Source: Alphaproteobacteria bacterium (GTDB lineage: Bacteria > Pseudomonadota > Alphaproteobacteria > CAAGCB01 > CAG-977). From it: a DNA stretch of 64,000 nt. Below the pieces are notes generated by a model. The model saw nothing but the letters and a program-made list of their open reading frames with translations. It had not been told where the DNA came from and ran no database searches. Shown piece after piece: positions 37,090 through 59,802 of this stretch (positions are counted from its first letter, which is position 1; each line of letters starts with the position of its first letter). The position numbers and the translations under genes were made by a program. The stretch spans positions 1,392 to 65,391 of the forward strand of contig JAKSVT010000007.1 in assembly GCA_024407875.1 (NCBI GenBank). Direction: 5' to 3'.

Positions 37090-38169
37090 TTGATAATATC
37101 TATTCCAGAATTTTTTAATTTTTTTAGTAGGTGCAAATTGTCTGAATTTGATGATTTAAAACAAGTATTAAGTGCTGATAATAAAACTGGAGAAAATATG
37201 GAGTATGATGCTCTATATTTGGATTTGGAAAATTTAGTAAAACATGATGAAGATAATGCGCCAGACTGGCGAAAATTAAAGAAGAACTGTCTTGAATTAT
37301 GGAAAAAGACAAGAGATTTAAGAGTAGCGTCCTATCTTTGTGTTGCAGAGACTTTGATTAACGGCTTTGAAGGTCTAGCTAATGGATTAGATTTAATCCA
37401 TTGGTTGATTAATGAATGTTGGGAGGACCTCTATCCAAGATTAGATCCTGATGATGATAATGATCCTCTAGAAAGAATAAATATATTGTCTTTGTTATCT
37501 CCAGAACCGGGCGCTTTTGATGATGCTGTTATGTTACCATCTAAAATTCGTTTATTTAAATTGATGCCAAATTTAAAATACACTTTGCGAGACGTCATGA
37601 TTTTAAATGGCGAAATTGATGGTGAATTAGATTTTGATATGAATTTGGTTAACGCAGAAATTCGTTCTCAGCCTCATGGTGCATTAAAAAATCAATTAGA
37701 TTTAATCAATAAGATAATAGATACCTTAAAACTAATTGAAAATACTATTGAAGAAAAGATTGCTGGCAAATATCCTTTAAAGATGGAAACTTTGAATAAA
37801 GATATTATGAGAATTAAACGTTTGCTAGACAGTCAAATATCTTTGAGTGATGGTGAAGAAATTAATGAAAATGAGGTTCAATCAATGGATGCTTCTGATG
37901 ATAGTGCAAAGGTTGAACAAATTAGTTCTGTTCAAATGAATAATATTTCTAATATAGCAAATGCAAAAATTAAGACAAGAGCAGACGCTTTGTTGCTTTT
38001 GAGAAAAAGTATGGAATATTTTCAGTCGGAAGAGCCAACAAGCCCAGTTCCTTATTTGTTACAAAGAGCTATGCGTGTTGCTGAAATGAATTTTATGGAT
38101 TTACTCCAAGATATTGCTCCTGATGCTTTGTCAAGAGGACGTGATGTTTTAGGTGTTAAGGAAGAATAA
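37090..38169 (+). CDS. tssA: Type VI secretion protein TssA (ImpA N-terminal domain)
   Basis: ImpA_N-like block LSADNKTGENMEYDALYLDLENLV...WRKLKKNCLELWKKTRDLRVASYLCVAE...WEDLYP. The true start codon is uncertain (a TTG near 37138 is possible). Confidence 0.7.
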   Translation: MIISIPEFFNFFSRCKLSEFDDLKQVLSADNKTGENMEYDALYLDLENLVKHDEDNAPDWRKLKKNCLELWKKTRDLRVASYLCVAETLINGFEGLANGLDLIHWLINECWEDLYPRLDPDDDNDPLERINILSLLSPEPGAFDDAVMLPSKIRLFKLMPNLKYTLRDVMILNGEIDGELDFDMNLVNAEIRSQPHGALKNQLDLINKIIDTLKLIENTIEEKIAGKYPLKMETLNKDIMRIKRLLDSQISLSDGEEINENEVQSMDASDDSAKVEQISSVQMNNISNIANAKIKTRADALLLLRKSMEYFQSEEPTSPVPYLLQRAMRVAEMNFMDLLQDIAPDALSRGRDVLGVKEE

Positions 38170-38210
38170 GAATTTTTATAGATGTTTTGATAGTGTGAAA
38201 GGAAAAAACA

Positions 38211-38744
38211 ATGGCTTCAAATAATAGTGGTCAAAAATTTATAGGAAAAAATCGTGCTCCACGTGTTCAAGTTGAATATGATGTTGAATTGTATGGTGCA
38301 GAGAAGAAAGTTAATTTACCTTTTGTTATGGGTGTAATGTCTGATTTATCTGGCAAACCAGCAGAACCACTACCAAAGGTAGAAGATCGTAAAATGATGG
38401 AAATCGATGCTGACAACTTTGATGATAGACTTAAAAGTGTAAAACCTCGTGTAGCTTTTAATGTTCCTAACGTTTTATCAGGTGAAGGAAACTTAGCTGT
38501 TGATATGACATTTGAAAACATGGAAGACTTTTCTCCAGCAGCTGTTGCAAAGAAAGTTGATGGTTTAAAGGAATTGTTGCAAGCTCGTCAAGAATTAGCT
38601 AATTTACTTTCTTACATGGATGGTAAATCTGGTGCAGAAGATTTAATTAATAAGATTTTAGAAGATCCTGCATTATTAAAGGCTTTATCACAAAAAGCTA
38701 AAGAAAAAGAAGTTGCTGAAGAAAAAGCAGAAGATAAAGAATAG
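38211..38744 (+). CDS. tssB: Type VI secretion sheath small subunit TssB/VipA
   Basis: RVQVEYDVELYGAEKKVNLPFVMGVMSDLSG is the canonical TssB core. Confidence 0.9.
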   Translation: MASNNSGQKFIGKNRAPRVQVEYDVELYGAEKKVNLPFVMGVMSDLSGKPAEPLPKVEDRKMMEIDADNFDDRLKSVKPRVAFNVPNVLSGEGNLAVDMTFENMEDFSPAAVAKKVDGLKELLQARQELANLLSYMDGKSGAEDLINKILEDPALLKALSQKAKEKEVAEEKAEDKE

Positions 38745-38765
38745 TTTTTAGGAGATTTTTTAATT

Positions 38766-40253
38766 ATGGCTAATGAAACACAACAATTAGATCAAGCAAA
38801 AACAGAAACATTGGAAATGTCTGATTTTGAAAAACTCTTAGACCAAGAGTTTAAGCCAAAATCAGAAGAAGCAAATACTGCTGTTAAAAACGCTGTTTCT
38901 ACTTTAGCATCTCAAGCTTTACAAAATGCAGCATTAGTTTCAGATAATTCAATTAAGACAATTGAAGGAATTATTGCTGAATTAGATAAGAAAATTTCTG
39001 AACAAGTAAATTTAATTATTCACCACAAGGATTTCTCTACATTAGAAGGTGCTTGGCGTGGTTTGAATTATTTGGTTTCAAATACACAAACAAGTGAATC
39101 AATGAAAATTCGTGTTTTGAATATTTCTAAAAGTGATATTGCTAAAACATTGAAGAAATATAAGGGAACAGCTTGGGATCAAAGCCCATTGTTTAAGAAG
39201 TTATATGAAGAAGAATATGGTACAGCTGGTGGTGAACCATTTGGTTGCTTAATTGGTGACTACTATTTTAACCATAGTGCTCCAGATTTGGAAATCTTGA
39301 AGGGCGTAGCACAAATTGCTGCTGCTTCTCATATGCCTTTCGTTTCTGCTTCAGATCCTTCTATTATGAATATGGACTCATGGCAAGAATTAGCAAATCC
39401 TCGTGATATTACAAAGATTTTCTCAACACCAGAATATGCTGCATGGCGTTCTTTCAGAGATTCTGAAGATAGTCGTTATGTTGCATTGGCAATGCCACGT
39501 GTTTTAAGCCGTATGCCTTATGGTTCTAAAACAAATCCTGTAGAAGAATTCAATTTTGAAGAAGATACAGGTGCTGGTTCAAGTGATAAATATAACTGGA
39601 TGAATGCAGCTTATGCAATGGGTGCAAACATCAATCGTTCTTTCACAAATTATGGTTGGTGTGCAAACATTCGTGGTGTAGAATCTGGTGGTGCTGTTGA
39701 AGGATTGCCTACACATACATTCCCTACAGATGATGGTGGTGTAGCTATGAAGTGTCCTACAGAAGTTGCTATTACAGATCGCCGTGAAGCTGAATTATCA
39801 GCAAATGGTTTCTTACCATTAGTTCACTGGAAAAATACAGACTATGCTGTATTCTTAGGTGGTCAAACAGTAAATAAACCAAAAGAATATGATAATGCTG
39901 ATGCAACAGCTAATGCTGCTTTATCTGCACGTTTGCCTTACATTTTTGCAACAAGCCGTTTTGCTCATTACTTAAAATGTATTGTTCGTGATAAGGTAGG
40001 TTCTTTTAAAGAAAAAGAAGATATGCAAAGCTGGTTGAGTGATTGGATTTCTAATTACGTAACAGCAGATGCTCATGCTTCTGAAGAAGTAAAAGCTAAA
40101 TATCCTTTAGCAGAAGCAAAAGTTGAAGTTGATACTATTGAAGGTCAACCAGGATACTATTCAGCAAAATTCTATTTAAGACCACATTACCAATTAGAAG
40201 GTTTAACAACTTCATTAAGATTGGTAACTAAAGTTCCAAGTGGAAATAAATAA
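38766..40253 (+). CDS. tssC: Type VI secretion sheath large subunit TssC/VipB
   Basis: 495 aa with conserved TssC blocks (WRGLNYLV, GCLIGDYYF, ALAMPRVLSRMPYG, NGFLPLVHWKNTDYAVF). Confidence 0.92.
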   Translation: MANETQQLDQAKTETLEMSDFEKLLDQEFKPKSEEANTAVKNAVSTLASQALQNAALVSDNSIKTIEGIIAELDKKISEQVNLIIHHKDFSTLEGAWRGLNYLVSNTQTSESMKIRVLNISKSDIAKTLKKYKGTAWDQSPLFKKLYEEEYGTAGGEPFGCLIGDYYFNHSAPDLEILKGVAQIAAASHMPFVSASDPSIMNMDSWQELANPRDITKIFSTPEYAAWRSFRDSEDSRYVALAMPRVLSRMPYGSKTNPVEEFNFEEDTGAGSSDKYNWMNAAYAMGANINRSFTNYGWCANIRGVESGGAVEGLPTHTFPTDDGGVAMKCPTEVAITDRREAELSANGFLPLVHWKNTDYAVFLGGQTVNKPKEYDNADATANAALSARLPYIFATSRFAHYLKCIVRDKVGSFKEKEDMQSWLSDWISNYVTADAHASEEVKAKYPLAEAKVEVDTIEGQPGYYSAKFYLRPHYQLEGLTTSLRLVTKVPSGNK

Positions 40254-40268
40254 TATTTAATTTGTATG

Positions 40269-40327
40269 CCTTTGCTAGATAAGATCGTTTATAACGAAAA
40301 TTTCTAGCAAAGGATTTTTTTGTTTTT
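40269..40327 (+). terminator. Rho-independent terminator/attenuator after tssC
   Basis: An 11-bp perfect stem CCTTTGCTAGA (40269-40279) / TCTAGCAAAGG (40303-40313) followed by ATTTTTTTGTTTTT. Confidence 0.5.
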
Positions 40328-40362
40328 ATGTTTTGTTGTATAGGATTTTTTGTTCCTAATTC

Positions 40363-40890
40363 TTGTTTATTAAAGGGGTTTTTATGAATAATCAGTTTTT
40401 GAAAAATAAACAAGAAGCTTTGTATCTACCGTGCCTACTTCACAGATTAACAGATTTAAATCCTGAAGAAAAAAAAGAAAATGTATTACCAGGTGTTTAT
40501 ATCAGCAATTTAAAAAAAGATATTTTTGAAAATATTGAGATGATATTAAATTCTAAAACTCATCCTCAAGATGCTGATGTAAATAATATATCTGAAATTG
40601 AAAACAGTGTTTTGTTTTATGGCCTTAAAGATTGTTGTGGAAAATCTTATTCTAAAGATAGTTCTGAAAAAATTAGAGATGAGATTGAGCTTCAAATTAA
40701 ATTGTTTGAACCTCGTATAAATCCAGATACTTTAAATGTAGAGATCGTTGAAAATAAAGAGGCAGAAAAACCTTTTTTAATGTTTAGTATTTCAGGAAAT
40801 GTTGAGGTCGGAGAACTTTCTGAAGAAATAGTATTTTTATCTAAATTAAATTTAGAAACCGGTGAAACAAATATAAAATTTAAAGATTAA
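40363..40890 (+). CDS. tssE: Type VI secretion baseplate protein TssE (gp25/GPW-like)
   Basis: LLHRLTDLNPEE corresponds to the LLDRLTD signature of TssE/gp25 lysozyme-like proteins. Size and position (before tssF) fit. Confidence 0.6.
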   Translation: MFIKGVFMNNQFLKNKQEALYLPCLLHRLTDLNPEEKKENVLPGVYISNLKKDIFENIEMILNSKTHPQDADVNNISEIENSVLFYGLKDCCGKSYSKDSSEKIRDEIELQIKLFEPRINPDTLNVEIVENKEAEKPFLMFSISGNVEVGELSEEIVFLSKLNLETGETNIKFKD

Positions 40891-40903
40891 GTGGGGATGT
40901 AAT

Positions 40904-42703
40904 ATGGATTTTCTTGAATATTATCGTGAAAATCTTAGTTATTTGAGAACATTAGGCGCTGAATTTGCAAATGAATTTCCGAAAATTGCAAATAGATTGA
41001 ATATTAATCAATTTGATTGTGCTGATCCGTATGTAGAAAGACTTCTTGAAGGAACAGCTTTCTTGTCTGCTCGTGTTGAAAAAAAATTAGATGATGGCCA
41101 TAAGAGATTTTTAGAATCTATCTTATCAACAACATCTCCAGATGTTTTATGTCCTGTTGTTTCCGGTGCTGTTTTCGAATTAGAACCTAATTCAATTCAA
41201 GAAAAGAAAGATTTTATCGTAAAATCAGAAACAAAAATCAATGTTAAAATTCCAAAAATTAGTACGCCATGTACGTTCTCAACTATTTGGGATACAAACT
41301 TAATAGCCGCAACAGTTTCAAATGCAGAATATATAACAAGGGATTTAGCGGATTATAATTTAGATGAACAATGTGAGGCAGCTTTACATTTTACTTTAAG
41401 TCCAATTAAAGATAAAGGTAAAGGCCGTTTAATTTATGATAAACTTCATTTGTATTTTAATTCTTCAGATGTTGTAGCTTCAACGTTGTTACGTCAATGC
41501 CAGACTGATTTTGTCGGTGTTTATATTTCTAATGATGGAAAAAATTTTGTAAATTTAAATGATGTAAAAATTAAAGTTCCTGCTGCTGATCTAGATTCTA
41601 CAATATTTTCTATATATAAAGGAAATGCAAAAGGGCTAAGAGTTTTACAAAACTATATGTTGTATCCTTCATTTTTTAAATTTATTAGTCTTGAATGTGA
41701 TACTTTTTCTTGGGCTATAGAAAATAATACATTAGATGTTTTGATAACATTTAACCGAAGAGAAAATGAATTAATTAATGAAATTCGTAGTGATAGCGTA
41801 AAAGTAAATTGTGTTCCTACTCTTAATCTATTTAAAAAACGTTCAGATAGAATTGTCCTTGATAAAGATTCTTACGAATTGCATGTATTTCCAGAAAAAA
41901 TGAGGGCTCGAGATTTCGAAATCATTTACATTTATAAAATGGAATTTTATAACGAATTAAATGAAGAATTGTTTGATGCTTCTAGCTTTTATGATGAACA
42001 TTTAAAAGAAAAAGATAAGAGAAATTTTTATAGTATTCATAGAAGAAGAAGTTTGTTTGATAAAAAGGCTACTTTAAGATCTTCTTATTCTGGTACAGAA
42101 GTCTTTGCTTCGGTATCAGGTAATGCTGTGGATATGCAACCTATTAATCAATATCTTGCAGATATGGTTTGCTCAAATAGAGATTTGCCTTTATTAGTCA
42201 CAAATACTTCTGAAATTGAAATAAATGAAAAAAATATAAATTCAGCAAAATTTGTTTCGATGCCTACAAGACCTAATTATCCTTTAATTGATAGTGGTAA
42301 AGAAAATGATTGGGTTAAAGTTTCTCATGTTATGATGAATATTTCTAGCATAATGTGGGAGAATGGAACACTACCTTTAAGTATATTTAAGGATATTATT
42401 AAAAATTATAACTCACGTTCTGTAGATGAATTGGCACGCTTGTTAGAGGGTATTGTTGATTTGCATGGAGAACCTACAACATTTAGATTTATAAAAAATG
42501 GAAATGTATTCTTTGAAACTGGTTGGAAAATAAGTTTTACTTTAAATGAAAATTCTTATGCAGGCTTAGGCTTTTATACTTTTGGTGTGATTATAGCTGA
42601 AATGCTTAAATCTTTTTCTTCTTTGAATGCATTGGTAGAGATTGAATTTTTAACACAACAATCTGGATTAATTAAAACATGGCGGACATCGGAAAATATA
42701 TAA
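40904..42703 (+). CDS. tssF: Type VI secretion baseplate protein TssF
   Basis: N-terminus MDFLEYYRENLSYLRTLGAEFANEFPKIANRL matches the conserved TssF start. About 600 aa. Confidence 0.85.
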   Translation: MDFLEYYRENLSYLRTLGAEFANEFPKIANRLNINQFDCADPYVERLLEGTAFLSARVEKKLDDGHKRFLESILSTTSPDVLCPVVSGAVFELEPNSIQEKKDFIVKSETKINVKIPKISTPCTFSTIWDTNLIAATVSNAEYITRDLADYNLDEQCEAALHFTLSPIKDKGKGRLIYDKLHLYFNSSDVVASTLLRQCQTDFVGVYISNDGKNFVNLNDVKIKVPAADLDSTIFSIYKGNAKGLRVLQNYMLYPSFFKFISLECDTFSWAIENNTLDVLITFNRRENELINEIRSDSVKVNCVPTLNLFKKRSDRIVLDKDSYELHVFPEKMRARDFEIIYIYKMEFYNELNEELFDASSFYDEHLKEKDKRNFYSIHRRRSLFDKKATLRSSYSGTEVFASVSGNAVDMQPINQYLADMVCSNRDLPLLVTNTSEIEINEKNINSAKFVSMPTRPNYPLIDSGKENDWVKVSHVMMNISSIMWENGTLPLSIFKDIIKNYNSRSVDELARLLEGIVDLHGEPTTFRFIKNGNVFFETGWKISFTLNENSYAGLGFYTFGVIIAEMLKSFSSLNALVEIEFLTQQSGLIKTWRTSENI

Positions 42704-43749
42704 AAGTTGTATCCCGTAAATTAAAACAGGGAATTTCCGAACCAGATTTTTTTGAATTGGTTCGTCGGTTTGAGCAAAATTATAAAGATTTGCCAAGAAT
42801 AGGTTGTGCAAAAAGACCAACACAAGAAAAAATAAGGTTTGGTCAAGCTCCTTTTTTGAATTTCCCAGCTAATAATATATCGGAAATACGTACAGATAAA
42901 GGTTATTGTGATGCAATTATAATGACTTATTTCTTTGGTTTGTTAGGTGTTAATGGACCTATGCCATTAGAATTTACGAACTATGTATTTCAAAGATCTC
43001 ATAATTTTTATGATCAAACATGGCGTAGATTTTTGGATATAATTCATCATAGAATGATAACTTTGTTCTACTATGCTTGGGCAAAGAATGAACAAGCAGT
43101 AAGCTTTGATAGAAAAGACGATGATTTAATAACAACAATAATTAAATCGTTGGCTGGCGTTAGTTCTAAAAATGAAGACGTAAATGATGATTTATATTAT
43201 TTAAGTGCAGGAAATTGCAATTTTTTTGGTTCTTTTATTAAAAGTAAAACAGGTCTTGAACAAGTATTAAGAGGATTTTTTCATTCTGATATAAGAGTAA
43301 AAGAATTTGTTCCTTTTATGTACCCAATTCCAGAACAACATAGATGTAAATTAGGAAATTTTGAGACATCAATATTAGGAAACAATATCCAAATTGGTCG
43401 CTCTTATATGACTATTTCTAAGAAATTTAAAATTTTTATAGGCCCTTGTGATTTTAATTTTTCAAAAGATTTTATGCCAGGGTTTAAAAAGTTTGAATTG
43501 TTAATAAGAATAATAAATAAATATTTAAGCCGACCTTATGATTACGATATAGATTTAGAAATAAATTCAAAGACTTTACCTAAAGCAAAATTAGGTGATG
43601 TAAATGCTTCAACTTTAGGTTATAATTGTTGGCTAGGAAAAATTGATACAAATAAAAATGTAAATTTAAATATTGATGCAGGAAGAATTGCTTTAAAACA
43701 ACATATGGCATCAATTAAACATAAAAGGAGTATGAAATGGGCAAGTTAA
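42679..43749 (+). CDS. tssG: Type VI secretion baseplate protein TssG
   Basis: EPDFFELVRRFEQ matches the TssG N-terminal FDFFQAVRLLE signature. Overlaps tssF. Confidence 0.8.
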   Translation: MADIGKYIKVVSRKLKQGISEPDFFELVRRFEQNYKDLPRIGCAKRPTQEKIRFGQAPFLNFPANNISEIRTDKGYCDAIIMTYFFGLLGVNGPMPLEFTNYVFQRSHNFYDQTWRRFLDIIHHRMITLFYYAWAKNEQAVSFDRKDDDLITTIIKSLAGVSSKNEDVNDDLYYLSAGNCNFFGSFIKSKTGLEQVLRGFFHSDIRVKEFVPFMYPIPEQHRCKLGNFETSILGNNIQIGRSYMTISKKFKIFIGPCDFNFSKDFMPGFKKFELLIRIINKYLSRPYDYDIDLEINSKTLPKAKLGDVNASTLGYNCWLGKIDTNKNVNLNIDAGRIALKQHMASIKHKRSMKWAS

Positions 43750-46385: not shown

Positions 46386-46476
46386 TTTTTTTATGTATTA
46401 TTGTAACCTTATTAAACTAAAAACGTTTAATTGGTAGAATAATATATAACAAACTCTATAAATAAGGAGATGTGAT

Positions 46477-46770
46477 ATGCCAACACCAGTTGCTACTATT
46501 GCTAATTTAACAGCTACAGGAGATGTAATCGTCGGACCAGGTGGAATTACTACAATGGTTAAAGGATTGCCTGTTGCTTGTATGGGAGATGCTGTTACTG
46601 GACCTATGTGTATAGGAGCAATTACGATGACTACTGCCTTAAACAAATTAGCAAAAGGTCGTCCAATTGCAAATTTAGGTTCTATGGTTACAGGTATAAA
46701 TCCTGCTGCTTTTGGAGCTCCAATGGCTACGGCAGTTGCTGTTTGTCCTAATGTTAATGAGATTGTTTAA
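46477..46770 (+). CDS. PAAR-like spike-tip protein (97 aa), atypical
   Basis: Three P-x-A/C-x-x-G repeats (LPVACMGD, GPMCIGA, RPIANLGS) in a small hydrophobic beta-rich protein, located between clpV and vgrG. Confidence 0.5.
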   Translation: MPTPVATIANLTATGDVIVGPGGITTMVKGLPVACMGDAVTGPMCIGAITMTTALNKLAKGRPIANLGSMVTGINPAAFGAPMATAVAVCPNVNEIV

Positions 46771-50596: not shown

Positions 50597-50989
50597 ATGG
50601 CTTTAGATGAAGATGATAAATTAGTAATAAAAGCTGTTGTAGAGCCAATAATTGATACAGTAGGTATAGAATTGTTAACAGCAGCTGTAAATGCTGGTAT
50701 AAAAAAATTATCTGCAACAAATGTTGAAGAAAGTGATTTATCAGGTAAGAGAGATTTAAAACCTTCAGAACAAGAGGTTACAATAAGTAAAACAGAGACA
50801 GCAGCTTCAGAAACAGAAGGCAAATTGTCTAAAGATGGTGTGTCTGCTCAACATGGTGATATTGAAGCTTCAGAAACGACGGCTGTAGCACAAGGAGCTG
50901 AAGCAACAGCTTTAGAATCTGGTGCCCAAGCTGTAAGAACGAAAGCAGGTGCTTCAGATATTGAAGCAAAAGCTTTGAAGATAACCTGA
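50597..50989 (+). CDS. Hypothetical Ala/Thr/Glu-rich protein downstream of vgrG (130 aa)
   Basis: In operon position immediately after vgrG. Low-complexity acidic sequence. Not Hcp-like. Confidence 0.3.
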   Translation: MALDEDDKLVIKAVVEPIIDTVGIELLTAAVNAGIKKLSATNVEESDLSGKRDLKPSEQEVTISKTETAASETEGKLSKDGVSAQHGDIEASETTAVAQGAEATALESGAQAVRTKAGASDIEAKALKIT

Positions 50990-52220: not shown

Positions 52221-52278
52221 GCTATATTTCATTTAAATAGAAAATATTACTAAAGAAATGAAATATAGCTTTTTTATT
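52221..52278 (+). terminator. Rho-independent terminator-like hairpin after the vgrG-associated genes
   Basis: A 14-bp stem GCTATATTTCATTT (52221-52234) / AAATGAAATATAGC (52256-52269) with ~21-nt loop, followed by TTTTTTATT. Confidence 0.45.
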
Positions 52279-52529: not shown

Positions 52530-53186
52530 ATGAAACATATATTCTATTTGTTGTTAATAAGTACTGTTATGTTAACGGGGTGCTATACAAAATGTGGAAT
52601 GGTTGCAGGCTTTGCTCCTAAACTAAAATCTTCTTATTCAAATAGATATCCTACGGTAGAACTTGATTATATGGCTATAACAGAGGATGAAGCCGTTGAA
52701 TTGTCGAGTATTTCTGTTGAGGAATATTTTTCTTTTTCTCAATTACGTAAATCTTTAAATCCATATACTATAGTTTTATCTTCCGAAGAAACAGAACCTC
52801 AAGAAATGCTTACAAAAGTTGATAATTGGGATAATTGGTTAGATAAAAACCCTGAAAAAATAGCTGTTGTTGTTAATATTCCAAAATTGGTTCAAAAAGA
52901 AAAAACAGATAAAGATAAAAACAAAGATAGTCGTCTTTTAATATATCCTTTAAAGAAAAGCTGGTTTTCTCCAAGAACGGATTATTTAGAAATTCGTCCT
53001 GGAAATGTTATAAAAATAGCTACTAGACCTGTTGATCCTGAAGCAAAAACCAAGAAAATAGCAAAACAAGAAAAAGAAGATGCTATTAAGAAAGCTGAAG
53101 AAGAACAAAAACAAGAAGAAATTAAACAAGCTGAAGAACGTAAGAAAAAGCGTAAATGCAGAAAAGTTAGATGTAAAGTAATGTAA
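52530..53186 (+). CDS. tssJ: TssJ-like outer-membrane lipoprotein with polybasic Cys-containing C-terminal tail (218 aa)
   Basis: Lipobox LLISTVMLTGC. Located directly upstream of tssK-tssL-tssM (conserved tssJKLM order). Unusual C-terminal KKKRKCRKVRCKVM. Confidence 0.5.
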   Translation: MKHIFYLLLISTVMLTGCYTKCGMVAGFAPKLKSSYSNRYPTVELDYMAITEDEAVELSSISVEEYFSFSQLRKSLNPYTIVLSSEETEPQEMLTKVDNWDNWLDKNPEKIAVVVNIPKLVQKEKTDKDKNKDSRLLIYPLKKSWFSPRTDYLEIRPGNVIKIATRPVDPEAKTKKIAKQEKEDAIKKAEEEQKQEEIKQAEERKKKRKCRKVRCKVM

Positions 53187-53204: not shown

Positions 53205-54587
53205 ATGCGTTTTGATGAAAGTATACACTGGAATAATGGTTTATTTATGCAGCCTCATCATTTGCAATATATGCAAAGATATATAGATTCTATGGCTCAT
53301 GCTAATAGACAATTAATATCTTCATATCCATATGGATTGATTGATTTTGTCCCTGATTTGGATGCTTTGTCTGGGGATAGAGTTGTAATAAAACGCTTAT
53401 CAGCTGTTATGCCTGATGGAACAGAAATTAGCCAACCAGGTAATTGTGTTATTCATCCTTTAGATTTAAAAAATGTTTTAAATGAACAAGTTTCATCATT
53501 TAAGGTTTATTTAGGTATCCCAGTTTGGTCTGAATTTGATGCAAACTTATCTGAAAATGAGAAGAATGAAAAGAAACGTAGATTTTTAACTGTTGAAAAA
53601 TCTATTAGAGATGAAAATACTGGGGATGACGAAATATCTGTTGTTACAAGAAGATTAAATGTTTCATTGTTAACAGAATTCGATGATATGGAGGATATGG
53701 TTACTATCCCTCTTATGAAAATTAATGTTCTTATTAATGATAACGCAGAAAAACGTCTTGAATGTGATGAAAAATTCATTCCTCCATTTATTGTTGTTTC
53801 AAATGATAGTTCTTTAGTTTCATTAGTTTCTAATTTAATGTCTGAAGTACGTCGTTGCAGAGATAAATTATTAAACGATTTGATGTTAACAAAGTTTACA
53901 TCAGAAAACTTTTCTGGAGCTGAAGCTTATAACACATTACAATATCGTGTTTTAAATTTATATGAAAACAGGTTATCAATGGAGATTTCTGGATGTAAAA
54001 TATCTCCATTTGAATTGTATTTTGAATTAAGATCTTTCTTAGCAGAATTAATGGGACTTCATCCATTAAATGAAATTAAAGAGATTCAAAATTACAATCA
54101 CTTAGATTGTTCTCCTCAATTTTATGAATTAGTAAATGATATTCAATCAATGATTATGTCTGAAGGTGGAGCAAGTTATATTGCTTTGAAACTTAATCCA
54201 ATTGATGATGGAGATTATTTATTTACAGAAATTCAAACACAACACATTGTAAAAGCTAGTGAATTTTATTTGGCTGTTCGTGCAGATTTAGAAGATCGTA
54301 GAGTTATTCAAGCTTTAGAAAAAGGTGATACATTTAAGATAATTAATCCAAGAGCAAAGATGATGCGTATTCGTGGTATCAAATTATCTGAAATGAGATA
54401 TCCTCCAAGATTTTTGCCAAATTTAAACAATACACTTTGGTTTAAACTTGACGTAGAAGAAACCCCTAAAACATGGCAAGATATTTGTTCTGAACATGGG
54501 ATTCTTGTTGATTATGCTAAGGATTTATTCCCAAGCTTAGAAGCTACTTTATTCTTAACAATTGTTGATTCTGAAACAAGGAATTAG
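53205..54587 (+). CDS. tssK: Type VI secretion baseplate protein TssK
   Basis: N-terminus MRFDESIHWNNGLFMQPHHLQYMQRY matches the conserved TssK start (W-EG-L-PQHFQ). Confidence 0.85.
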   Translation: MRFDESIHWNNGLFMQPHHLQYMQRYIDSMAHANRQLISSYPYGLIDFVPDLDALSGDRVVIKRLSAVMPDGTEISQPGNCVIHPLDLKNVLNEQVSSFKVYLGIPVWSEFDANLSENEKNEKKRRFLTVEKSIRDENTGDDEISVVTRRLNVSLLTEFDDMEDMVTIPLMKINVLINDNAEKRLECDEKFIPPFIVVSNDSSLVSLVSNLMSEVRRCRDKLLNDLMLTKFTSENFSGAEAYNTLQYRVLNLYENRLSMEISGCKISPFELYFELRSFLAELMGLHPLNEIKEIQNYNHLDCSPQFYELVNDIQSMIMSEGGASYIALKLNPIDDGDYLFTEIQTQHIVKASEFYLAVRADLEDRRVIQALEKGDTFKIINPRAKMMRIRGIKLSEMRYPPRFLPNLNNTLWFKLDVEETPKTWQDICSEHGILVDYAKDLFPSLEATLFLTIVDSETRN

Positions 54588-54590: not shown

Positions 54591-55424
54591 ATGTCCGCTT
54601 TAGAAAATATTTGTCGTCCAATATTAATTAGTATGTGTAATTATTGGCAACTTATTGAAAATAATCAATCTGTTGACAAAGATACTTTTAAAAAAGAAAT
54701 AAGATCTTTAATTAGTGAAGCCAGAGAAACAGCTAATAAATCTCCTTCATTAGAAAGAGAATTTTCTCGTGTTGAAAAGCCTTTGATTTTCTTCGTTGAC
54801 TATATGGTTAAAGAAGGAAATTTTCCATTTAAAAATGAATGGAGAGAAATAGGGCGTGAATATAATGAACTTTCAGGCGATGAAAAATTCTTTGATATGT
54901 TAACAGAAACTTTGGATGACCCAGATTCTGCGAACAGTTTAGAAATTTTCTATAATGTTATGGGATTAGGGTTTAGTGGTATTTACCAAAACGATCCTGA
55001 ATATCTTGAACGTAGAATGAAGGTTTGTGCATCTCGTTTTGATACTAATAGTTTAGATTTGACTAAAGAAGAAATTATAAAAGTTGATGAAACAATTTTA
55101 GATAAAAAAGTGATTCCTAATGAAAAACAAATGTTTAAAGTTAGAAATTTGGTTTTCTTCTGCTTGTTTGTAATGCTTGTTACTTTTGGAGTCAATTTGT
55201 GGAAATTCTTATCTGTTACGTATGAATATAGAGATGCTTTAGATAGGGCTGTGGATGCATCTATACCAAACTCAATTATTGTTGATAGTAGAAATAGACA
55301 CCGTGCAAAAAAACAAACATTTTCAAATGAAAAAAGCAGTAAAAAAGATAAGGCTTTTTTAGAAGAAAATAAGAATCGTAAACAACTGAAGAAAAAGAAT
55401 AGAAATAATTTGGAGGAAAACTAA
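54591..55424 (+). CDS. tssL: Type VI secretion membrane protein TssL (DotU/IcmH family)
   Basis: Cytoplasmic DotU-like domain followed by a single C-terminal TM helix (LVFFCLFVMLVTFGVNLW). No OmpA/peptidoglycan-binding extension. Confidence 0.75.
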   Translation: MSALENICRPILISMCNYWQLIENNQSVDKDTFKKEIRSLISEARETANKSPSLEREFSRVEKPLIFFVDYMVKEGNFPFKNEWREIGREYNELSGDEKFFDMLTETLDDPDSANSLEIFYNVMGLGFSGIYQNDPEYLERRMKVCASRFDTNSLDLTKEEIIKVDETILDKKVIPNEKQMFKVRNLVFFCLFVMLVTFGVNLWKFLSVTYEYRDALDRAVDASIPNSIIVDSRNRHRAKKQTFSNEKSSKKDKAFLEENKNRKQLKKKNRNNLEEN

Positions 55425-55425
55425 G

Positions 55426-58400
55426 ATGGATAAGTCTTTAGCTGCCGTAAAGAATGTTAAAACTCCAGATTTATCATCCATTCCAACATGGATGTATTGG
55501 GTAATTGGTATACTTGTTGCCGTAGTTCTTATATTTTTAGTTGTTTTACCATTTCTTAGAAAAATTCGTCGCAAACAAATTAAAGTAAAAGAAACTACAG
55601 AAATCAAAAAAGATTTGATGATTTGGCATCACCTTGCTCAGTTGGTTAGAGGTGGATCTGCACATCAAAAAGCAAAGAAAGTTTTGTCTGATCAAATAGC
55701 AAACATCGATATAGCTTTTGAAAAAGGTATGAAGATGTTGTCTGATCACAACAGAAATGTTAATAATCAACCGTGTTATTTAATTGTTGGCGAACCTATG
55801 AGTGGTAAGTCAACATTGCTTCGTAATAGTGAACAAGAATTAGTTGTTTCAAAAGAAGAAGAAAGAGACGAAGAAAGTAATAAGGGGGAAGCTCTTCGTT
55901 TGTGGATGGGAGCCAAATCTTTAACTTATGATATTGGTGGTCATATTTTCTTCGATAGATGGATGGAAGGCTCTAGTGCTGAATGGAGCTATATTGCAAA
56001 GATAATTTCTAAAAAACGTCGTAAAAAACCTCTAGATGGTGTTATTTTAACTATTCCTGCTGACGCTTTATTAGCCGATGATGATGGATTAACACAACAA
56101 AAAGCTGTTTTAATGTCAACAGAATTAGGTCAATTATTGCATACTTTAGGTATGTATATGCCTTGTTATGTAGTTGTTACTAAAACAGATATGGTTAACG
56201 GCTTTAGTGAATATATGATGTCCATTGCAGAAGATTTGCGTTCTCAAATTTTTGGATGGGTAAATGATGATCCAAAAGCAAGATATGATGTAGATAAATT
56301 TAATATTTTCTGGAAAGACTTGTTATATAGATTGCGCAAAGGTTGTGCTAAAAACATGATTTCCAAAAACGTTACATCTCGTTTGACAGGATATGCAAAC
56401 AAAATGGAAATCAATGGTAAAATATTCGTATTTCCTGATAACTTTGCAAAAATGTATAAAAACATATCTACTTATCTAAAAGCTATTTTTGGCGAGGGTA
56501 ATTATTATGGTGCAGGAAACGCTTTGTTTGAAGGCTTGTTCTTCACATCTGCTGTAGAAGGTGATTTTACATTAAGTCCGGATTTAGCGATGATTTGCGA
56601 ACAAAAAATTGATGATATGCCAGTTGTGCATGAACATAAAATGAATTCAAAACCTTTATTTATTAAAGATTTACTTCAAAAAGTAATATTTAAGAATTCT
56701 GTTAATGCTGCATTCACACAAGTTAAAAAAGCAAAATTAAATATACCTAAATATGTTGCATGTTTTTGTATGCTTTTAATTGGAGGATTGTGGGCTTTTA
56801 GAGGAGTTTCTAAAAATGTTGATTTTGAAACAGCCTTACAACCAAAAATTTTATACTTGCAAACTTTAACTGACATGATGAAAAGTGGGGGTGTATTTAA
56901 TTCTCCTCTTATAAAGAAAACTGAAGAAGGTCAATATGTTTTGAATTCAGATCCTGTTGAAAATATGGATATTTCAAGACTTCATTTCTTCTTTGAAGCA
57001 TTTACAGAAAGAGAATCAAAAATTGTAGCACCGTTTGGCTTTAAATTAGCAAGTCTTTTTGTTTTTGGTTTTGAAAAGAGTATGGGATATGACGATTTTG
57101 CTATAATTATAAACCAATTGTTTGGCTTTATGATTAGAACTCCATTAATTAAATTAGTTGGAGACAAAATCGATTCTGAAGGAACAAATGCTCATTTAAC
57201 TGTAAGGAAAAAAGGGGCTGTTGCATCTTATTCTTTATTAAATGAAGTAAGATTTGAAGATTTTACAGATTTATTTGCTGATAAAAAGGCTTTTGATGTT
57301 TCAAACATGATGTATTATTTAATGCCTGAAATTTCAGCAGATACTATTAATATCTTAGATGCTTATTTGCCTCAATATGATGAAAAGTATACAGGAACAT
57401 TTGATTCAACATATCTTTATACTGAAGATTATTCTAGATCTTTAAAAAAAGGTGTTTCTTCAATATTAAATTCTTGGAATGATTTAACAGCATATCCAAG
57501 TAGTTCTTTTTCAAAAATTAGAACATTAATCAAGAATACTAGACTTTTAGAAAGCTCTTATGCTGATATCAATCACCGTGTAAATGTTATGGAAAGTGCT
57601 CAATCTTTAGAAGAACTTACACAACAAATTAATTCTCTTGTTGATTTATTAAAAGAACAAGAAAATCGTACGGAAACTATTATATTAACATATAAAAACT
57701 TACTTTCTTTAACGGATACAAAGAAAATCGATGTTTCTAAAGAAGAAAGTAAATCTATGGGAACAGAAGATTTAGCTGTTAGAATGTTGTTAAATAAAGC
57801 TACTGACGAATATAAGAATCATTTAAAAACAGACTTTTCTTTCTTAATAGATAACGCAGATGAATTATCTTCAGAAGAATTTACAGTTTCTGATATTCGT
57901 AAATCATTGCCTAGAATTAGAAAAAATATCTTAATAGAGATTGACGCTAAGAAAAAAGAAATGAGTAAAGGTTTAAATGACTTTAGAAATAAACCTTTAT
58001 TACAATGGCAATTTGTTGAAAAAGAAGGTGCTTCTAATTATACCTATCATATTCTTTATGATGGCTATAAATACTTAGATAACCTAGAAATTCCTACACG
58101 TGCTAAATTGCTAGAAAATGATTTTAGAACAAATTGGTCTAGAGCAAATAGATCTATTCGTGATGTTAATGCTGATTTTGAAGATTTTATGGAAATTTAT
58201 TCTAAGAGTGAAAATTTAAAACCTCAATTAGATTTAATGAAACGTGTTTACGATTTGTTCTTTGCTTTAATTAAGTATTCAATTGTTGATACAGAATTAT
58301 CTAAACTTCCTGAAACTGTAAGCGAGTTGTATAGTTATGTCGAACAAAAATCTGAAGAAAATCAAGTATTTGGATTTACAGAAGATTTAGCAAGAGAAAC

Positions 58401-59802
58401 TATGGGAGACTTACGTTATTTGAAAGGCTATGATCCTAAGGAATTTAGTAAAACTTTAGGGGATTTGTTTAAGTTCGCTCACCAAATTATGAATGCACAA
58501 AAGTCAAAAACAGACAAAAATAATGAAAAAGATAAACAACAACAAATTTCACAATTGTTTACTAAGGAATTCCAACATTACAAAAAATCTTTAGAGGTTT
58601 TTGAAGGATATTTGGATGATTATATTCGTTATTGGGGTGGATATTCTGATCGCGTATATGTTCCAGCAAAAGATTGGCATGAATTTAAGGTTCGTTTGAA
58701 GGTATTAAAAGCTTATAAGATTAACTCGTTATTACAACAAGTTTATTCTCAATGCTTAACTATTTTGAAATCAGTAGATGAATCTTTGATTTCAGATCAC
58801 TTGAAGCAAAAGAAGAAAGCTTTATTAGATTTGTTAAGTGATAAAATTAGTATCATGACACCTTTGTTTACAGATGCTGGTGAAAAGACTTTGTTAGGAT
58901 GGTCTGAATTACCAAACAGTTCTGAACAAGCTTGGGAGCAAATTTCTTCAACTTCAGATGCTACATTAAAAGAAACGTTGTTTAACGTATATTCAAAGAC
59001 ACCTCGTAGTAAGATTTCTTGGTGGAATGAATTTATTGATAATGGTATTGCTCTTTTAAAACATGAAAATGAGAAACGTATTGAAAATAATTATGTAGAT
59101 TTAATTAAGTCTATGAATATGTTCCCATTATGTAAGAATTGTCAAACAAAGGGTGTTATTAACGTTAATGATATGAAGAAATTAACTACATTACTTTCTT
59201 CTAGTGTTTCTGTTCCAAAAGCAAAAGAAGACGAAGAAAGCGGTAATGATAGTAAAGAAGAGTTGTTTGATAGAAAACTTAACTTGTTTAAAGATTTGAA
59301 GACAATTGATTGGGCAAAAGAAATCTTAACAGTTGCAAAGCAATTACAAAATACCAAAAAGCCTTTGTCTTGGACTTTGTATCAAGCAGGTGTTGAAAAT
59401 CAAACAGGTTTATTAGAAGAAAATGAACTCTCTGCAATTAACAGATTCCGTTATGTTGAAGTTGTAACTGGTAAAAAGACTAAACGTTATAGCACAGCTG
59501 CAATGAAAGATAGTGCAATCGGTAGAGGTAAAGCTGAAGATAAGTTGATTATTAACTTCTATAAATATTCAACAGATACTAAACCTGAGATTTCTTTGAG
59601 ATATAACACCACTTGGGCTATCTTTAAGATCTATTTGGCTAATGGTGCTATTTCTGATCCTGCTGAAGATAAAGTTTATATTCCTTTGAATATTGTTGAT
59701 AAAGACGGCACAAAGTATAAGTATTTTGTAACTGTTAAATTTAACAATGAAATCTTAAAAGCGGATGAATGGCCAACCAAGAAGAATTGGAATAAAAAAT
59801 AG
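55426..59802 (+). CDS. tssM: Type VI secretion membrane protein TssM (IcmF family), 1458 aa
   Basis: N-terminal TM helix, Walker A GEPMSGKST, a later TM segment (YVACFCMLLIGGLWAF), and a large C-terminal periplasmic domain. Start overlaps the tssL stop. Confidence 0.9.
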   Translation: MDKSLAAVKNVKTPDLSSIPTWMYWVIGILVAVVLIFLVVLPFLRKIRRKQIKVKETTEIKKDLMIWHHLAQLVRGGSAHQKAKKVLSDQIANIDIAFEKGMKMLSDHNRNVNNQPCYLIVGEPMSGKSTLLRNSEQELVVSKEEERDEESNKGEALRLWMGAKSLTYDIGGHIFFDRWMEGSSAEWSYIAKIISKKRRKKPLDGVILTIPADALLADDDGLTQQKAVLMSTELGQLLHTLGMYMPCYVVVTKTDMVNGFSEYMMSIAEDLRSQIFGWVNDDPKARYDVDKFNIFWKDLLYRLRKGCAKNMISKNVTSRLTGYANKMEINGKIFVFPDNFAKMYKNISTYLKAIFGEGNYYGAGNALFEGLFFTSAVEGDFTLSPDLAMICEQKIDDMPVVHEHKMNSKPLFIKDLLQKVIFKNSVNAAFTQVKKAKLNIPKYVACFCMLLIGGLWAFRGVSKNVDFETALQPKILYLQTLTDMMKSGGVFNSPLIKKTEEGQYVLNSDPVENMDISRLHFFFEAFTERESKIVAPFGFKLASLFVFGFEKSMGYDDFAIIINQLFGFMIRTPLIKLVGDKIDSEGTNAHLTVRKKGAVASYSLLNEVRFEDFTDLFADKKAFDVSNMMYYLMPEISADTINILDAYLPQYDEKYTGTFDSTYLYTEDYSRSLKKGVSSILNSWNDLTAYPSSSFSKIRTLIKNTRLLESSYADINHRVNVMESAQSLEELTQQINSLVDLLKEQENRTETIILTYKNLLSLTDTKKIDVSKEESKSMGTEDLAVRMLLNKATDEYKNHLKTDFSFLIDNADELSSEEFTVSDIRKSLPRIRKNILIEIDAKKKEMSKGLNDFRNKPLLQWQFVEKEGASNYTYHILYDGYKYLDNLEIPTRAKLLENDFRTNWSRANRSIRDVNADFEDFMEIYSKSENLKPQLDLMKRVYDLFFALIKYSIVDTELSKLPETVSELYSYVEQKSEENQVFGFTEDLARETMGDLRYLKGYDPKEFSKTLGDLFKFAHQIMNAQKSKTDKNNEKDKQQQISQLFTKEFQHYKKSLEVFEGYLDDYIRYWGGYSDRVYVPAKDWHEFKVRLKVLKAYKINSLLQQVYSQCLTILKSVDESLISDHLKQKKKALLDLLSDKISIMTPLFTDAGEKTLLGWSELPNSSEQAWEQISSTSDATLKETLFNVYSKTPRSKISWWNEFIDNGIALLKHENEKRIENNYVDLIKSMNMFPLCKNCQTKGVINVNDMKKLTTLLSSSVSVPKAKEDEESGNDSKEELFDRKLNLFKDLKTIDWAKEILTVAKQLQNTKKPLSWTLYQAGVENQTGLLEENELSAINRFRYVEVVTGKKTKRYSTAAMKDSAIGRGKAEDKLIINFYKYSTDTKPEISLRYNTTWAIFKIYLANGAISDPAEDKVYIPLNIVDKDGTKYKYFVTVKFNNEILKADEWPTKKNWNKK

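Follow-up and report, generated by a model that had tools for sequence, protein, structure and literature searches.

The locus studied here raises the question of whether a T6SS-i gene cluster from which hcp, the gene of the tube protein, is missing can still code for a working machine. It lies in a window of 64,000 nucleotides (the whole stretch of DNA that was analysed) from the chromosome of an uncultured alphaproteobacterium with ~30% GC. In itself it is another T6SS-i cluster, and its value lies in the leads that it gives on hcp, on a split VgrG and on a lineage that crosses phyla. The system is an ordinary T6SS-i with two unusual details, hcp gone from its slot and a spike encoded by two genes, rather than an endosymbiont oddity.

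Gene content and affiliation of the cluster

The cluster is an intact T6SS-i of the proteobacterial kind, nearest to the lineage of Pseudomonas aeruginosa H1 (i3). Pfam and NCBIfam searches of its ORFs support 11 core proteins, with TssA, TssB, TssC, TssE, TssF, TssG, ClpV, TssK, TssL, TssM and the VgrG hub above curated cut-offs, and bear out the gene set read from the sequence in a preliminary description of this DNA. The first genes code for TssA, the sheath, the baseplate and ClpV:

37090..38169, plus strand: tssA, short TssA1-like form (ImpA_N 98.9 bits; TIGR03363 176 bits, cut-off 160.85)
38211..38744, plus strand: tssB, small sheath subunit (T6SS_VipA 195 bits)
38766..40253, plus strand: tssC, large sheath subunit, MCQ2914182.1 (VipB 441 bits, VipB_2 158 bits)
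40363..40890, plus strand: tssE, gp25-like baseplate wedge (GPW_gp25 44.6 bits; Logan call of 168 aa)
40904..42703, plus strand: tssF (T6SS_TssF 375 bits, full length)
42679..43749, plus strand: tssG (T6SS_TssG 243 bits)
43737..46385, plus strand: clpV (tssH), sheath-recycling AAA+ ATPase (AAA_2, AAA_lid_9, AAA and ClpB_D2-small domains)

The start of tssA is uncertain, either the TTG at 37090 or a codon at ~37138 implied by a 343-aa Logan gene call, while that of tssE is probably the ATG at 40384. TssB is 87-89% identical to its alphaproteobacterial relatives, and ClpV, with a double AAA+ architecture, is 83-90% identical to the ClpV found at the same position in relatives. The top PDB match of TssC is 5n8n_B (750 bits), which we take to be the TssB1C1 sheath of P. 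aeruginosa; V. cholerae VipB gives ~370 bits. The i3 assignment follows from PDB bit scores and gene order, namely this sheath match and synteny apart from hcp. Among the components of a T6SS-i, the sheath pair TssB and TssC (by profiles and PDB sheath matches), the baseplate proteins TssE, TssF, TssG and TssK, each above its cut-off, and TssA and ClpV are present, while Hcp (TssD) is missing from the 64-kb window. Some of the T6SS proteins of this organism already bear names in the public NCBI record.

The named genes all lie on the plus strand in the order tssABC, tssEFG-clpV-PAAR-vgrG(hub)-vgrG(needle)-130aa-DUF6931, tssJ-KLM, where tssJ is a candidate. Hairpins had been described between the blocks, and terminator-like hairpins with a T-run behind them are indeed found at 40269-40313 and at 52221-52269. 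All 17 cluster ORFs are open and agree in length with their counterparts in relatives where such exist.

None of the cluster-region ORFs of at least 80 aa has a domain of the FHA, Pkinase, PP2C or TagF families, so the reported lack of fha, ppkA, pppA and tagF from the locus is confirmed. The threonine-phosphorylation control of H1-like i3 systems (Fha, PpkA, PppA, TagF, TagQRST) is thus not seen here. This lack had been presented as a special feature, a view that finds no support: judged by gene order, the visible tssJKLM regions of relatives L004, L010 and L019 leave no room for Fha, PpkA, PppA or TagF either, and absence of the regulators appears common to the few relatives inspected. Their absence alone does not show constitutive expression.

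Host and relatives

The NCBI record labels the source as an Alphaproteobacteria MAG ('Alphaproteobacteria bacterium'), in agreement with the alphaproteobacterial host deduced earlier from the split F0 operon; the GC content of ~30% given for the window was reproduced by computation. The atp operon reported there is found as atpI-B-E-F' at 141-2022. A second gene starts at ~144 on the minus strand and runs past the window edge; we take it to encode another b subunit of F0. At 30.8% GC the T6SS does not stand out from its flanks (30.2%), which suggests that the cluster is a long-term resident.

A reduced, endosymbiont-like genome had also been proposed. The window encodes biosynthesis of aromatic amino acids, histidine and squalene (prephenate dehydrogenase and dehydratase, EPSP synthase, HisG/HisD, two squalene/phytoene synthases and an amine oxidase), together with Pi and ABC transporters and a prepilin peptidase. 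The loss of biosynthetic pathways that would mark an endosymbiont is not seen in it, and the closest T6SS relatives are, by record titles, MAGs from human gut, rumen, bird gut and termite gut rather than intracellular symbionts, so that the proposal finds no support.

Nor is there support for the view that a T6SS is uncommon in this group. The best TssC match has 90% identity, the TssC cluster at 90% identity has 26 members, several of them labelled Alphaproteobacteria, and further alphaproteobacterial MAGs have the same gene cluster (L002, L030, L083 and L084). TssC is 70-90% identical to proteins of gut, rumen and termite MAGs that are labelled Alphaproteobacteria, Treponema, Succinivibrionaceae, Lentisphaeria, Verrucomicrobia/Akkermansia and Melainabacteria; a scan of JGI metagenomes with TssF returned no match. 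The cluster belongs to a sub-lineage common to gut-associated bacteria of several phyla. Its distribution suggests a T6SS-i lineage adapted to the gut and shared by horizontal transfer, which would stand apart from the well-studied Bacteroidales systems.

The vacant hcp slot

The position of hcp in all relatives corresponds here to a short spacer:

40254..40362, no strand: tssC-tssE spacer, slot of hcp in all relatives (hairpin 40269-40313, then T-run)

The gene is found directly 3' of tssC in all 73 non-self relatives with enough sequence (73/73), likewise in L084, L086 and L087. The spacer measures 109 nt; in the comparison with the 73 relatives the distance from tssC to tssE is 113 nt in the source and at least 557 nt in the relatives. 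The spacer hairpin is terminator-like (-25.7 kcal/mol), and in relatives a hairpin lies 3' of hcp. A search of the 64-kb window with tblastn and an Hcp HMM built from ~80 Hcp sequences of relatives found no hcp (best E = 0.67), in line with the absence from the locus noted before. That the gene is gone from exactly the slot filled in every relative had escaped the preliminary description.

A mistaken assembly of this region, with the tssC-tssE junction collapsed or chimeric, is very improbable. The contig does come from a metagenome-assembled genome, and the two assemblies that display the same hcp-less junction (the NCBI MAG contig and Logan contig L001) may share the reads SRR17543911; the NCBI and Logan contigs are nonetheless identical across a junction that lies neither at a contig end nor at a repeat, the flanking genes are full length, the hairpin in the spacer is coherent, and assemblers rarely make clean internal deletions of 0.5 kb.

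The state of the remaining genes bears on the fate of hcp. Stop codons arise easily at 30% GC and the cluster ORFs, one of them of 1458 codons, are nonetheless all open. The identity of TssB, TssC and ClpV to five outgroups equals that of the AT-rich relative L084, which has two hcp genes, while TssE, TssF and TssG are on average ~2 points below L084; taken together, the values give no hint of relaxed selection. L084 and L087 carry an additional hcp away from the canonical slot, and their clusters are interrupted behind the hub gene, showing that relocation of parts occurs in this lineage. Since the rest of the cluster is intact and has diverged no further than in a relative that carries hcp, the gene is probably located elsewhere in the genome of the source.

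We accordingly lean, with some reserve, towards an intact T6SS-i of an H1-like sub-lineage that receives its Hcp from elsewhere and is still functional. Modelled on T6SS-i machines generally, TssJLM would anchor the TssEFGK baseplate around the hub-needle-PAAR spike, TssA would prime polymerisation of the Hcp tube within the TssBC sheath, contraction would fire the spike and its cargo, and ClpV would recycle the sheath. An hcp gene at another site of the genome would keep such a system functional.

The main competitor of this reading, unlikely yet deserving serious weight, is a recent inactivation: hcp was cleanly deleted, the organism has no second copy, and too little time has passed for the other genes to decay. 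T6SS loss through such inactivation is common in host-associated lineages. It would account for the absence of hcp precisely from the conserved slot and from the rest of the 64 kb, and for the outcome of an Hcp-family search in which neither the best 120 of 342 matches nor the members listed for 20 clusters of those 120 include an accession of the source MAG (MCQ29...). The searched collections also hold no relative closer than the 90% TssC match by which the loss could be dated. A very recent deletion would likewise leave the remaining genes intact and unaccelerated, and their intactness is thus no proof of function. Against it speak the 17 open ORFs of 17 in such AT-rich DNA, the absence of excess divergence relative to the hcp-bearing L084, a spacer that keeps a well-formed hairpin and T-run rather than deletion debris, and the extra-cluster hcp copies of the closest AT-rich relatives.

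Least probable of all is a machine kept without canonical Hcp, either with a non-homologous inner tube or in a new role that requires no tube: its sole support is an otherwise intact, apparently constrained cluster that lacks hcp and has uncharacterised small proteins (a 130-aa protein, DUF6931), while every relative keeps hcp, the 130-aa protein is not Hcp-like, and contractile injection systems that do without a tube are not known. It is correspondingly most doubtful that the organism has no hcp at all and yet keeps the other cluster genes under selection; if true, this would be a contractile T6SS with a non-Hcp tube or one repurposed to tubeless work.

A spike encoded by two genes

Between clpV and the accessory genes three ORFs code for the spike:

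46477..46770, plus strand: PAAR-like spike tip protein, 97 aa, divergent (PAAR_motif E = 3.4e-5, 24.4 bits)
46832..48028, plus strand: vgrG part 1, stand-alone gp27/gpD-like hub, 398 aa (Phage_GPD 51.4 bits, cut-off 30.1)
48041..50581, plus strand: vgrG part 2, gp5-like OB-fold and needle, 846 aa (fold match, colinearity with fused homologues)

The PAAR assignment made earlier is partly upheld: the only PDB matches, weak ones, are PAAR proteins and relatives have homologues, 75-89% identical, at the same place 3' of clpV and 5' of the VgrG hub, but the score lies below the Pfam cut-off of 27 bits. The VgrG read there stands as to the hub, which exceeds the Phage_GPD cut-off, and not as to its being one gene, since hub and needle are separate ORFs. 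The preliminary description had missed this split.

The hub, named 'phage late control D family protein' by PGAP, reaches only 72 bits against TIGR03361 (cut-off 186). Its nearest homologues all measure ~400-414 aa; at greater distance the homologues are fusions 950-1220 aa long. The second gene carries its own ribosome-binding site (AGGAG). Its product gives a weak Phage_base_V match and an AF2 model of pLDDT 68, whose top 12 Foldseek matches in the PDB are all spike proteins with probability 1.00 (among them VgrS, VgrG1, PVC/Afp spikes and the R2 pyocin spike). It is colinear with the C-terminal halves of the distant fused homologues, which places the break at the gp27/gp5 junction. A coiled coil at residues ~270-340 is specific to the window, and the C-terminal ~190 aa are almost free of homologues. 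No effector-immunity pair was recognised, and among the local sequences this homologue-poor C-terminal segment of the needle protein is the best candidate for cargo.

Hub and needle are also separate ORFs in L002, L016, L020 and L083, and stand-alone hubs are found in L009, L011, L084 and L087. In the branch of the sub-lineage that comprises the alphaproteobacterial and Treponema relatives, two neighbouring genes thus code for VgrG; one carrier of the split VgrG, Treponema primitia ZAS-10, appears to be a cultured isolate. Canonical fused VgrG is found in Paraburkholderia and Desulfobacter relatives, and the hub-containing proteins of Akkermansia relatives are fused as well. With these sister lineages fused, the split would most simply be a secondary fission and not the ancestral state.

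Membrane complex and accessory genes

The 3' part of the cluster is organised as follows:

50597..50989, plus strand: 130-aa A/E/T/S-rich protein (no Pfam, NCBIfam, PADLOC or PDB match)
51022..52200, plus strand: DUF6931 accessory gene (DUF6931 79 bits; homologues in several relatives)
52221..52269, no strand: terminator-like hairpin with 23-bp arms and a T-run, boundary ahead of the tssJKLM block
52530..53186, plus strand: lipoprotein, positional TssJ candidate (lipobox LTG/C, just before tssK)
53205..54587, plus strand: tssK (T6SS_VasE 207 bits; PGAP name TssK)
54591..55424, plus strand: tssL (DotU) (DotU 60.5 bits)
55426..59802, plus strand: tssM, 1458 aa, divergent periplasmic part (IcmF-related_N 133 bits, above the Pfam cut-off)

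The 130-aa protein is low-complexity and, to judge by its sequence, disordered. It is not Hcp (Hcp HMM E = 1.5). The hcp-bearing L083 has a 132-aa gene in the same place after vgrG part 2, alike by position and size only. A DUF6931 homologue lies directly 5' of the tssJ candidate in L004 and on the opposite strand in L019 and L024.

The 'TssJ-like' protein of the preliminary description keeps its lipobox and its position before tssK as arguments, but has no Pfam, NCBIfam or PDB match, and its structure model (pLDDT 48) is unusable. Homologues are found directly 5' of tssK in L010 (lipobox LIAC), L004 (IVGC) and L018/L019. Only the N-terminal third of TssM is recognised (TIGR03348 covers 31-452 with 160 bits, cut-off 388); its periplasmic part is unrecognisable to profiles and the protein has no PDB match. 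A full-length homologue is present in L004.

Comparison with known systems

P. aeruginosa H1-T6SS is arranged as tssA-tssB-tssC-hcp-tssE-tssF-tssG-clpV-vgrG with a second block tssJ-K-L-M. The cluster shares this gene order and second block, a short TssA1-type TssA (TIGR03363) and a sheath whose nearest match among solved structures is that of H1. An Hcp1-like Hcp is encoded by relatives whose TssC is 67-70% identical (E down to 1e-81 with an approximate Hcp1 query). Unlike H1, the cluster is without hcp and without Fha, PpkA, PppA, TagF and TagQRST, its VgrG is divergent and formed by two genes, the DUF6931 gene precedes the candidate tssJ where H1 has fha1, and the TssJ candidate and periplasmic TssM escape the profiles.

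The T6SS-i of V. cholerae works although hcp is absent from its main cluster; its tube genes lie in auxiliary clusters, a precedent for an hcp located elsewhere. That system is of another subtype, as the lower VipB score indicates, and its arrangement is species-wide, whereas the relatives of the source all keep hcp in the cluster; no auxiliary hcp locus of the source was seen in the 64-kb window. Being a natural hcp knock-out or relocation, the locus can show whether such clusters function with the tube gene in trans.

The Bacteroidales T6SS-iii, a gut system carried on integrative conjugative elements, resembles the present one as a gut-associated T6SS common to distantly related gut bacteria. 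The cluster is of another T6SS class, having TssA, ClpV, TssL and TssM of proteobacterial type. No conjugation genes adjoin it in the window and its GC gives no sign of recent transfer; in relative L083 a TraG/VirD4-type coupling protein is encoded ~2 kb upstream of tssA.

Baseplate hub and spike are separate proteins in phages P2 (gpD and gpV) and T4 (gp27 and gp5). The cluster likewise has separate genes for the hub and the OB-fold/needle protein, with the break at the corresponding junction, but its split spike sits among T6SS-i genes, with ClpV and TssJLM. Such a split VgrG could inform spike assembly and cargo swapping. As a novelty the two-gene spike is more likely than an hcp-free machine, and the case is about evenly balanced that this hub-plus-needle organisation defines an undescribed, biologically meaningful T6SS-i sub-lineage spread among gut anaerobes.

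Gene content of the cluster

The plus strand of the window is occupied from 37090 to 59802 by 17 consecutive ORFs, with no credible gene on the minus strand. The preliminary description considered the core set of Tss proteins to be readable from the translations. This holds for 11 proteins that score above the curated cut-offs of Pfam or NCBIfam; it does not extend to PAAR, which is sub-threshold, nor to TssJ, which lacks a profile or PDB match, and VgrG is encoded by two genes.

Table. Profile matches of cluster proteins
TssA: ImpA_N, 98.9 bits; TIGR03363, 176 bits (cut-off 160.85)
TssB: T6SS_VipA, 195 bits
TssC: VipB, 441 bits; VipB_2, 158 bits
TssE: GPW_gp25, 44.6 bits
TssF: 375 bits
TssG: 243 bits
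ClpV: AAA_2, AAA_lid_9 and ClpB_D2-small
VgrG hub: Phage_GPD, 51.4 bits
TssK: VasE, 207 bits
TssL: DotU, 60.5 bits
TssM: IcmF-related_N, 133 bits, N-terminal third only; TIGR03348, 160 bits (cut-off 388)

The PAAR protein reaches 24.4 bits, under the Pfam cut-off of 27, and its PDB matches are weak and to PAAR proteins only. The TssJ candidate (52530-53186) has a lipobox (LTG/C) and homologues found directly 5' of tssK in relatives, two of them also with a lipobox. Pfam searches with five homologues and a profile search of the PDB gave it no support, and its single-sequence AF2 model (pLDDT 48) was unusable. Terminator-like hairpins followed by T-runs are found at 40269-40313, 3' of tssC, and at 52221-52269, 3' of the gene for a DUF6931 protein; the layout in hairpin-separated blocks proposed initially is therefore correct.

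The cluster proteins have accessions MCQ2914179 to MCQ2914196 (locus tags MJ247_) and are matched as well by Logan contigs of run SRR17543911. In the entries consulted, PGAP annotates TssC and TssK as parts of a T6SS, the hub as a 'phage late control D family protein' and the needle protein as hypothetical. The cluster is already named in part in the public record.

A spike encoded by two genes

Two adjacent ORFs occupy the position of vgrG:

46832-48028, + strand: hub, 398 aa, gp27/gpD-like
48041-50581, + strand: needle protein, 846 aa, gp5-like, starting 12 nt past the hub and with its own AGGAG ribosome-binding site

The AF2 model of the needle protein (57 homologues, pLDDT 68) shows a beta domain at the N-terminus and a region of beta-strands. 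Its best 12 Foldseek matches in the PDB are all spike proteins, with probability 1.00, and include Salmonella VgrS, VgrG1 of P. aeruginosa and P. protegens, the PVC, Afp and AlgoCIS spikes and the R2 pyocin spike. Both halves are joined in one order in distant homologues (943-1220 aa), whose residues 1 to ~400 correspond to the hub and those from ~414 to the needle protein; this colinearity shows that together the two ORFs make up one VgrG. Separate hub and needle ORFs are found in loci L002, L016 and L083 (Alphaproteobacteria) and in L020 (Treponema), and stand-alone hubs of 402-414 aa in four further loci (L009, L011, L084 and L087). A canonical fused VgrG (GPD, base_V and Gp5_trimer_C) is present in Paraburkholderia and Desulfobacter relatives, and one of the two Akkermansia proteins tested combines GPD, base_V and DUF2345 in a single ORF. 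As judged from these sequences, the VgrG split is real and conserved.

The hub belongs to a small family, with 57 matches at E <= 1e-3 among 1.84 billion cluster representatives, the closest all of ~400 aa. In the needle protein, a coiled coil specific to the window spans about residues 270-340, and the C-terminal ~190 residues have almost no homologues; of the local regions, this last one would be the strongest candidate for a cargo or adaptor domain.

Absence of hcp and status of the system

The usual position of hcp is directly 3' of tssC, where it is found in 73 of the 73 non-self loci with at least 700 nt past tssC (L012 and L083 being corrected by hand in this count) and likewise in L084, L086 and L087. 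The Hcp ORFs of the fetched loci were found with a P. aeruginosa Hcp1 query, and agree with the precomputed Pfam T6SS_HCP calls where such calls exist. The distance from tssC to tssE is 113 nt in the window versus at least 557 nt in every relative. That hcp is missing from the gene set, as first reported, was borne out over the whole 64-kb window by an HMM built from the relatives' Hcp and by tblastn with the closest ones, neither of which found an Hcp (best E = 0.86 and 0.67). The 109-nt tssC-tssE spacer contains a hairpin with an 11-bp stem, then a T-run, analogous to the hairpins 3' of hcp in L002, L016, L030 and L083, and the gap looks as if hcp and its ribosome-binding site had been cleanly excised. 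The 130-aa ORF of the cluster was rejected as a hidden Hcp, being of low complexity, with E = 1.5 against the Hcp HMM and no PDB match.

Hcp is indispensable for the T6SS. On balance, hcp would be encoded elsewhere in the genome and the system would be functional, a reading that we favour somewhat. In this AT-rich genome the 17 ORFs are all open, and where relatives have counterparts the lengths agree. When compared with five outgroup loci, TssB, TssC and ClpV of the window are as similar as those of L084, an AT-rich locus with two hcp genes, while TssE, TssF and TssG are on average about two points lower. L084 and L087 (35% GC; TssC and ClpV 90% identical to the window) are the closest AT-rich relatives. 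Their two hcp genes, at 6836-7318 and 10717-11199 in L084, precede tssA and follow tssC, and are 66% identical to each other. In both loci the cluster stops after the hub gene and aspS comes next, so these genomes must carry the needle gene and tssJKLM at other sites. T6SS parts thus do become dispersed in this lineage. Together, the open ORFs, the L084-like similarity and this dispersal argue for a system in use with hcp at another site.

Recent inactivation is a weaker but serious alternative, as a very recent deletion would be expected to have an identical appearance and no hcp attributable to the MAG was found among the matches and cluster members listed. None from the same MAG was present among the best 120 of the 342 matches of a profile from five close Hcp sequences to 5.8 billion proteins, nor any MCQ29... 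accession among the listed members of 20 Hcp clusters, the large clusters being listed in part. One hcp candidate on a short contig belongs to a different assembly, and FYMINK versus GARP composition did not discriminate the Hcp of AT-rich genomes, such proteins being too conserved. An assembly artefact is very improbable, since the Logan assembly (SRR17543911 contigs) gives the identical hcp-less junction, and a machine operating independently of Hcp is the least probable reading of all. Two features raise this cluster above routine, its split spike and a loss of hcp specific to its lineage.

Regulators, effectors and neighbouring genes

No FHA, kinase, PP2C or TagF domain was found in any ORF of at least 80 aa in the cluster region, in agreement with the reported lack of Fha/PpkA/PppA/TagF-type regulators. 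This lack had been regarded as a special feature. By gene order, such genes are likewise not seen in L004, L010 and L019, the few relatives whose tssJKLM region is visible, so their absence would not set the window genome apart. No effector-immunity pair was recognised, and a PADLOC scan of the uncharacterised ORFs found nothing relevant. Genes of the cluster and its borders with less defined roles are:

34597-36870, + strand: 757-aa protein just 5' of tssA, with a signal peptide, an N-terminal soluble domain and ~10 hydrophobic segments
51022-52200, + strand: DUF6931 protein, directly 5' of the tssJ candidate
59823-63740, + strand: 1305-aa protein directly 3' of tssM, with a signal peptide and many GGAI/FxxN-type repeats

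The DUF6931 gene is directly ahead of the tssJ candidate in L004 too, and L019 and L024 have homologues of it; a single paper mentioning the family was found. The 757-aa protein has a C-terminal CxxC motif (DCFAC) and no profile match, and looks like a putative disulfide reductase of the DsbD/ScsB type. The 1305-aa protein, named autotransporter by PGAP, has no Pfam or NCBIfam match; its repeats are reminiscent of chlamydial polymorphic membrane proteins and its C-terminal region is read as a beta-barrel. Both were rejected as T6SS effectors, the former for its signal peptide, multiple transmembrane segments and CxxC motif, the latter as an autotransporter, and neither is beside the T6SS in relatives. 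These flanking proteins are not part of the T6SS.

Genome background

The split F0 operon typical of Alphaproteobacteria was correctly recognised, with atpI, atpB, atpE and atpF' at 141-2022; a minus-strand gene from ~144 runs past the window edge and is read as a second b subunit. The pentapeptide and Sel1 proteins are also present, as adjacent genes at 16057-19325 (+) coding for a 755-aa pentapeptide-repeat and a 334-aa Sel1-repeat protein. After the Sel1 gene, a 596-aa ORF with no Pfam match lies on the opposite strand (19338-21128).

The proposal of an endosymbiont-like genome is not borne out by the window, which has genes for aromatic amino acid, histidine and squalene biosynthesis and for transporters. 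Among its products are prephenate dehydrogenase and prephenate dehydratase, EPSP synthase, HisG/HisD, a prepilin peptidase, TldD/PmbA, Tgt and TrmFO, and transporters of the Pi and ABC types. Two squalene/phytoene synthase genes and a flavin amine oxidase gene at 11396-14187 (-) form an HpnC/HpnD/HpnE-like squalene synthesis set, whose presence at 30% GC speaks against an extremely reduced genome.

The GC content of the cluster (30.8%) equals that of the remainder of the window (30.2%), indicating that the cluster is long resident and ruling out its recent horizontal acquisition by this genome. The nearest alphaproteobacterial loci have 52-58% GC, versus the 35% of L084 and L087. Identity to the nearest relatives is 79-90% for TssB, TssC, ClpV and PAAR, about 47-56% for TssA, TssE, TssF and TssG and 29-35% for the hub, a disparity of rates inside one cluster (37090-50581 compared with L002, L016, L083 and L084). 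In TssF, Treponema loci (54-58% identity) are no farther from the L002 group than the window is (52%).

Distribution and relation to known systems

At least 120 protein clusters share 80-90% identity with TssC. When one genome per species was scanned, the closest loci, with taxa as in the record titles, were from Alphaproteobacteria or 'Rhodospirillaceae' MAGs (UMGS1574, UBA6347), Lentisphaeria, Verrucomicrobia UBA1727, many Treponema/Spirochaetaceae MAGs, Treponema primitia ZAS-10, Succinatimonas, 'Candidatus Avigastranaerophilus' (Melainabacteria), Kiritimatiellota and Akkermansia; Planctomycetota, methanotrophs, Paraburkholderia and others follow at 66-70%. The T6SS had been described as uncommon in its group, a view that is not supported, as the same system recurs in, and is evidently common among, uncultured gut-type Alphaproteobacteria MAGs. 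A JGI metagenome scan with TssF, aimed at closer relatives, found none.

Several of these loci deserve separate mention. A T6SS-i whose TssC is 70-83% identical to that of the window is present in L018/L019 (Candidatus Avigastranaerophilus), L022-L031 (Akkermansia), L003 (Lentisphaeria) and L021 (Kiritimatiellota); no paper on clusters of this kind in Melainabacteria, Akkermansia and other non-proteobacterial gut bacteria was found. Treponema primitia ZAS-10 (L015, NZ_JAJQRB010000009.1), apparently a cultured isolate, bears a T6SS of this lineage, with a TssC 78% identical to the window and PAAR, hub and needle homologues 3' of clpV; it could be an experimental model for the split spike. L016 (CAVCSV010000011.1) is a 55.5-kb contig deposited as the Gram-positive 'Limosilactobacillus gorillae' that carries a Gram-negative T6SS cluster at 54% GC, and this MAG contig has almost certainly been mis-binned or mislabelled. 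Genes of the window organism also occur as gene-length records of 1197 and 1488 bp in GCA_024500515.1 (L089) and GCA_024500545.1; one accession number among these reaches 17 millions, and both appear to be very large submissions of metagenomes or gene catalogues rather than genomes. In the alphaproteobacterial L083 (TssC 89% identical), a TraG/VirD4-type type IV coupling protein is encoded at 3869-6205, ~2 kb 5' of tssA. Its proximity hints at possible carriage of the cluster by a conjugative element in some hosts, which, if true, could account for its cross-phylum spread.

A gut T6SS gained by horizontal transfer was described in Mucispirillum, with a 'putative' VgrG and related to those of Helicobacter and Campylobacter (PMC5285517). 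Searches of the literature, whose coverage is incomplete, found nothing specific on the present gut-associated lineage, the split VgrG, DUF6931 or the accessions, nor a paper describing a two-gene VgrG in a T6SS-i or in this lineage; priority is not claimed.

The best solved homologue of TssC is 5n8n (750 bits), which we take to be the P. aeruginosa TssB1C1 sheath, ahead of V. cholerae VipB (~370 bits) and Francisella IglB (256 bits). The H1 (i3) cluster is ordered tssA-B-C-(hcp)-E-F-G-clpV-vgrG, then tssJ-K-L-M, and the window cluster shares this order except for the hcp slot. It differs from H1 in the absence of the phosphorylation switch, in its split and very divergent VgrG and in having no Hcp within the window. 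On the defining features tested, the cluster is a T6SS-i of the H1/i3 lineage, with Hcp, VgrG, the putative TssJ and the phosphorylation switch as exceptions.
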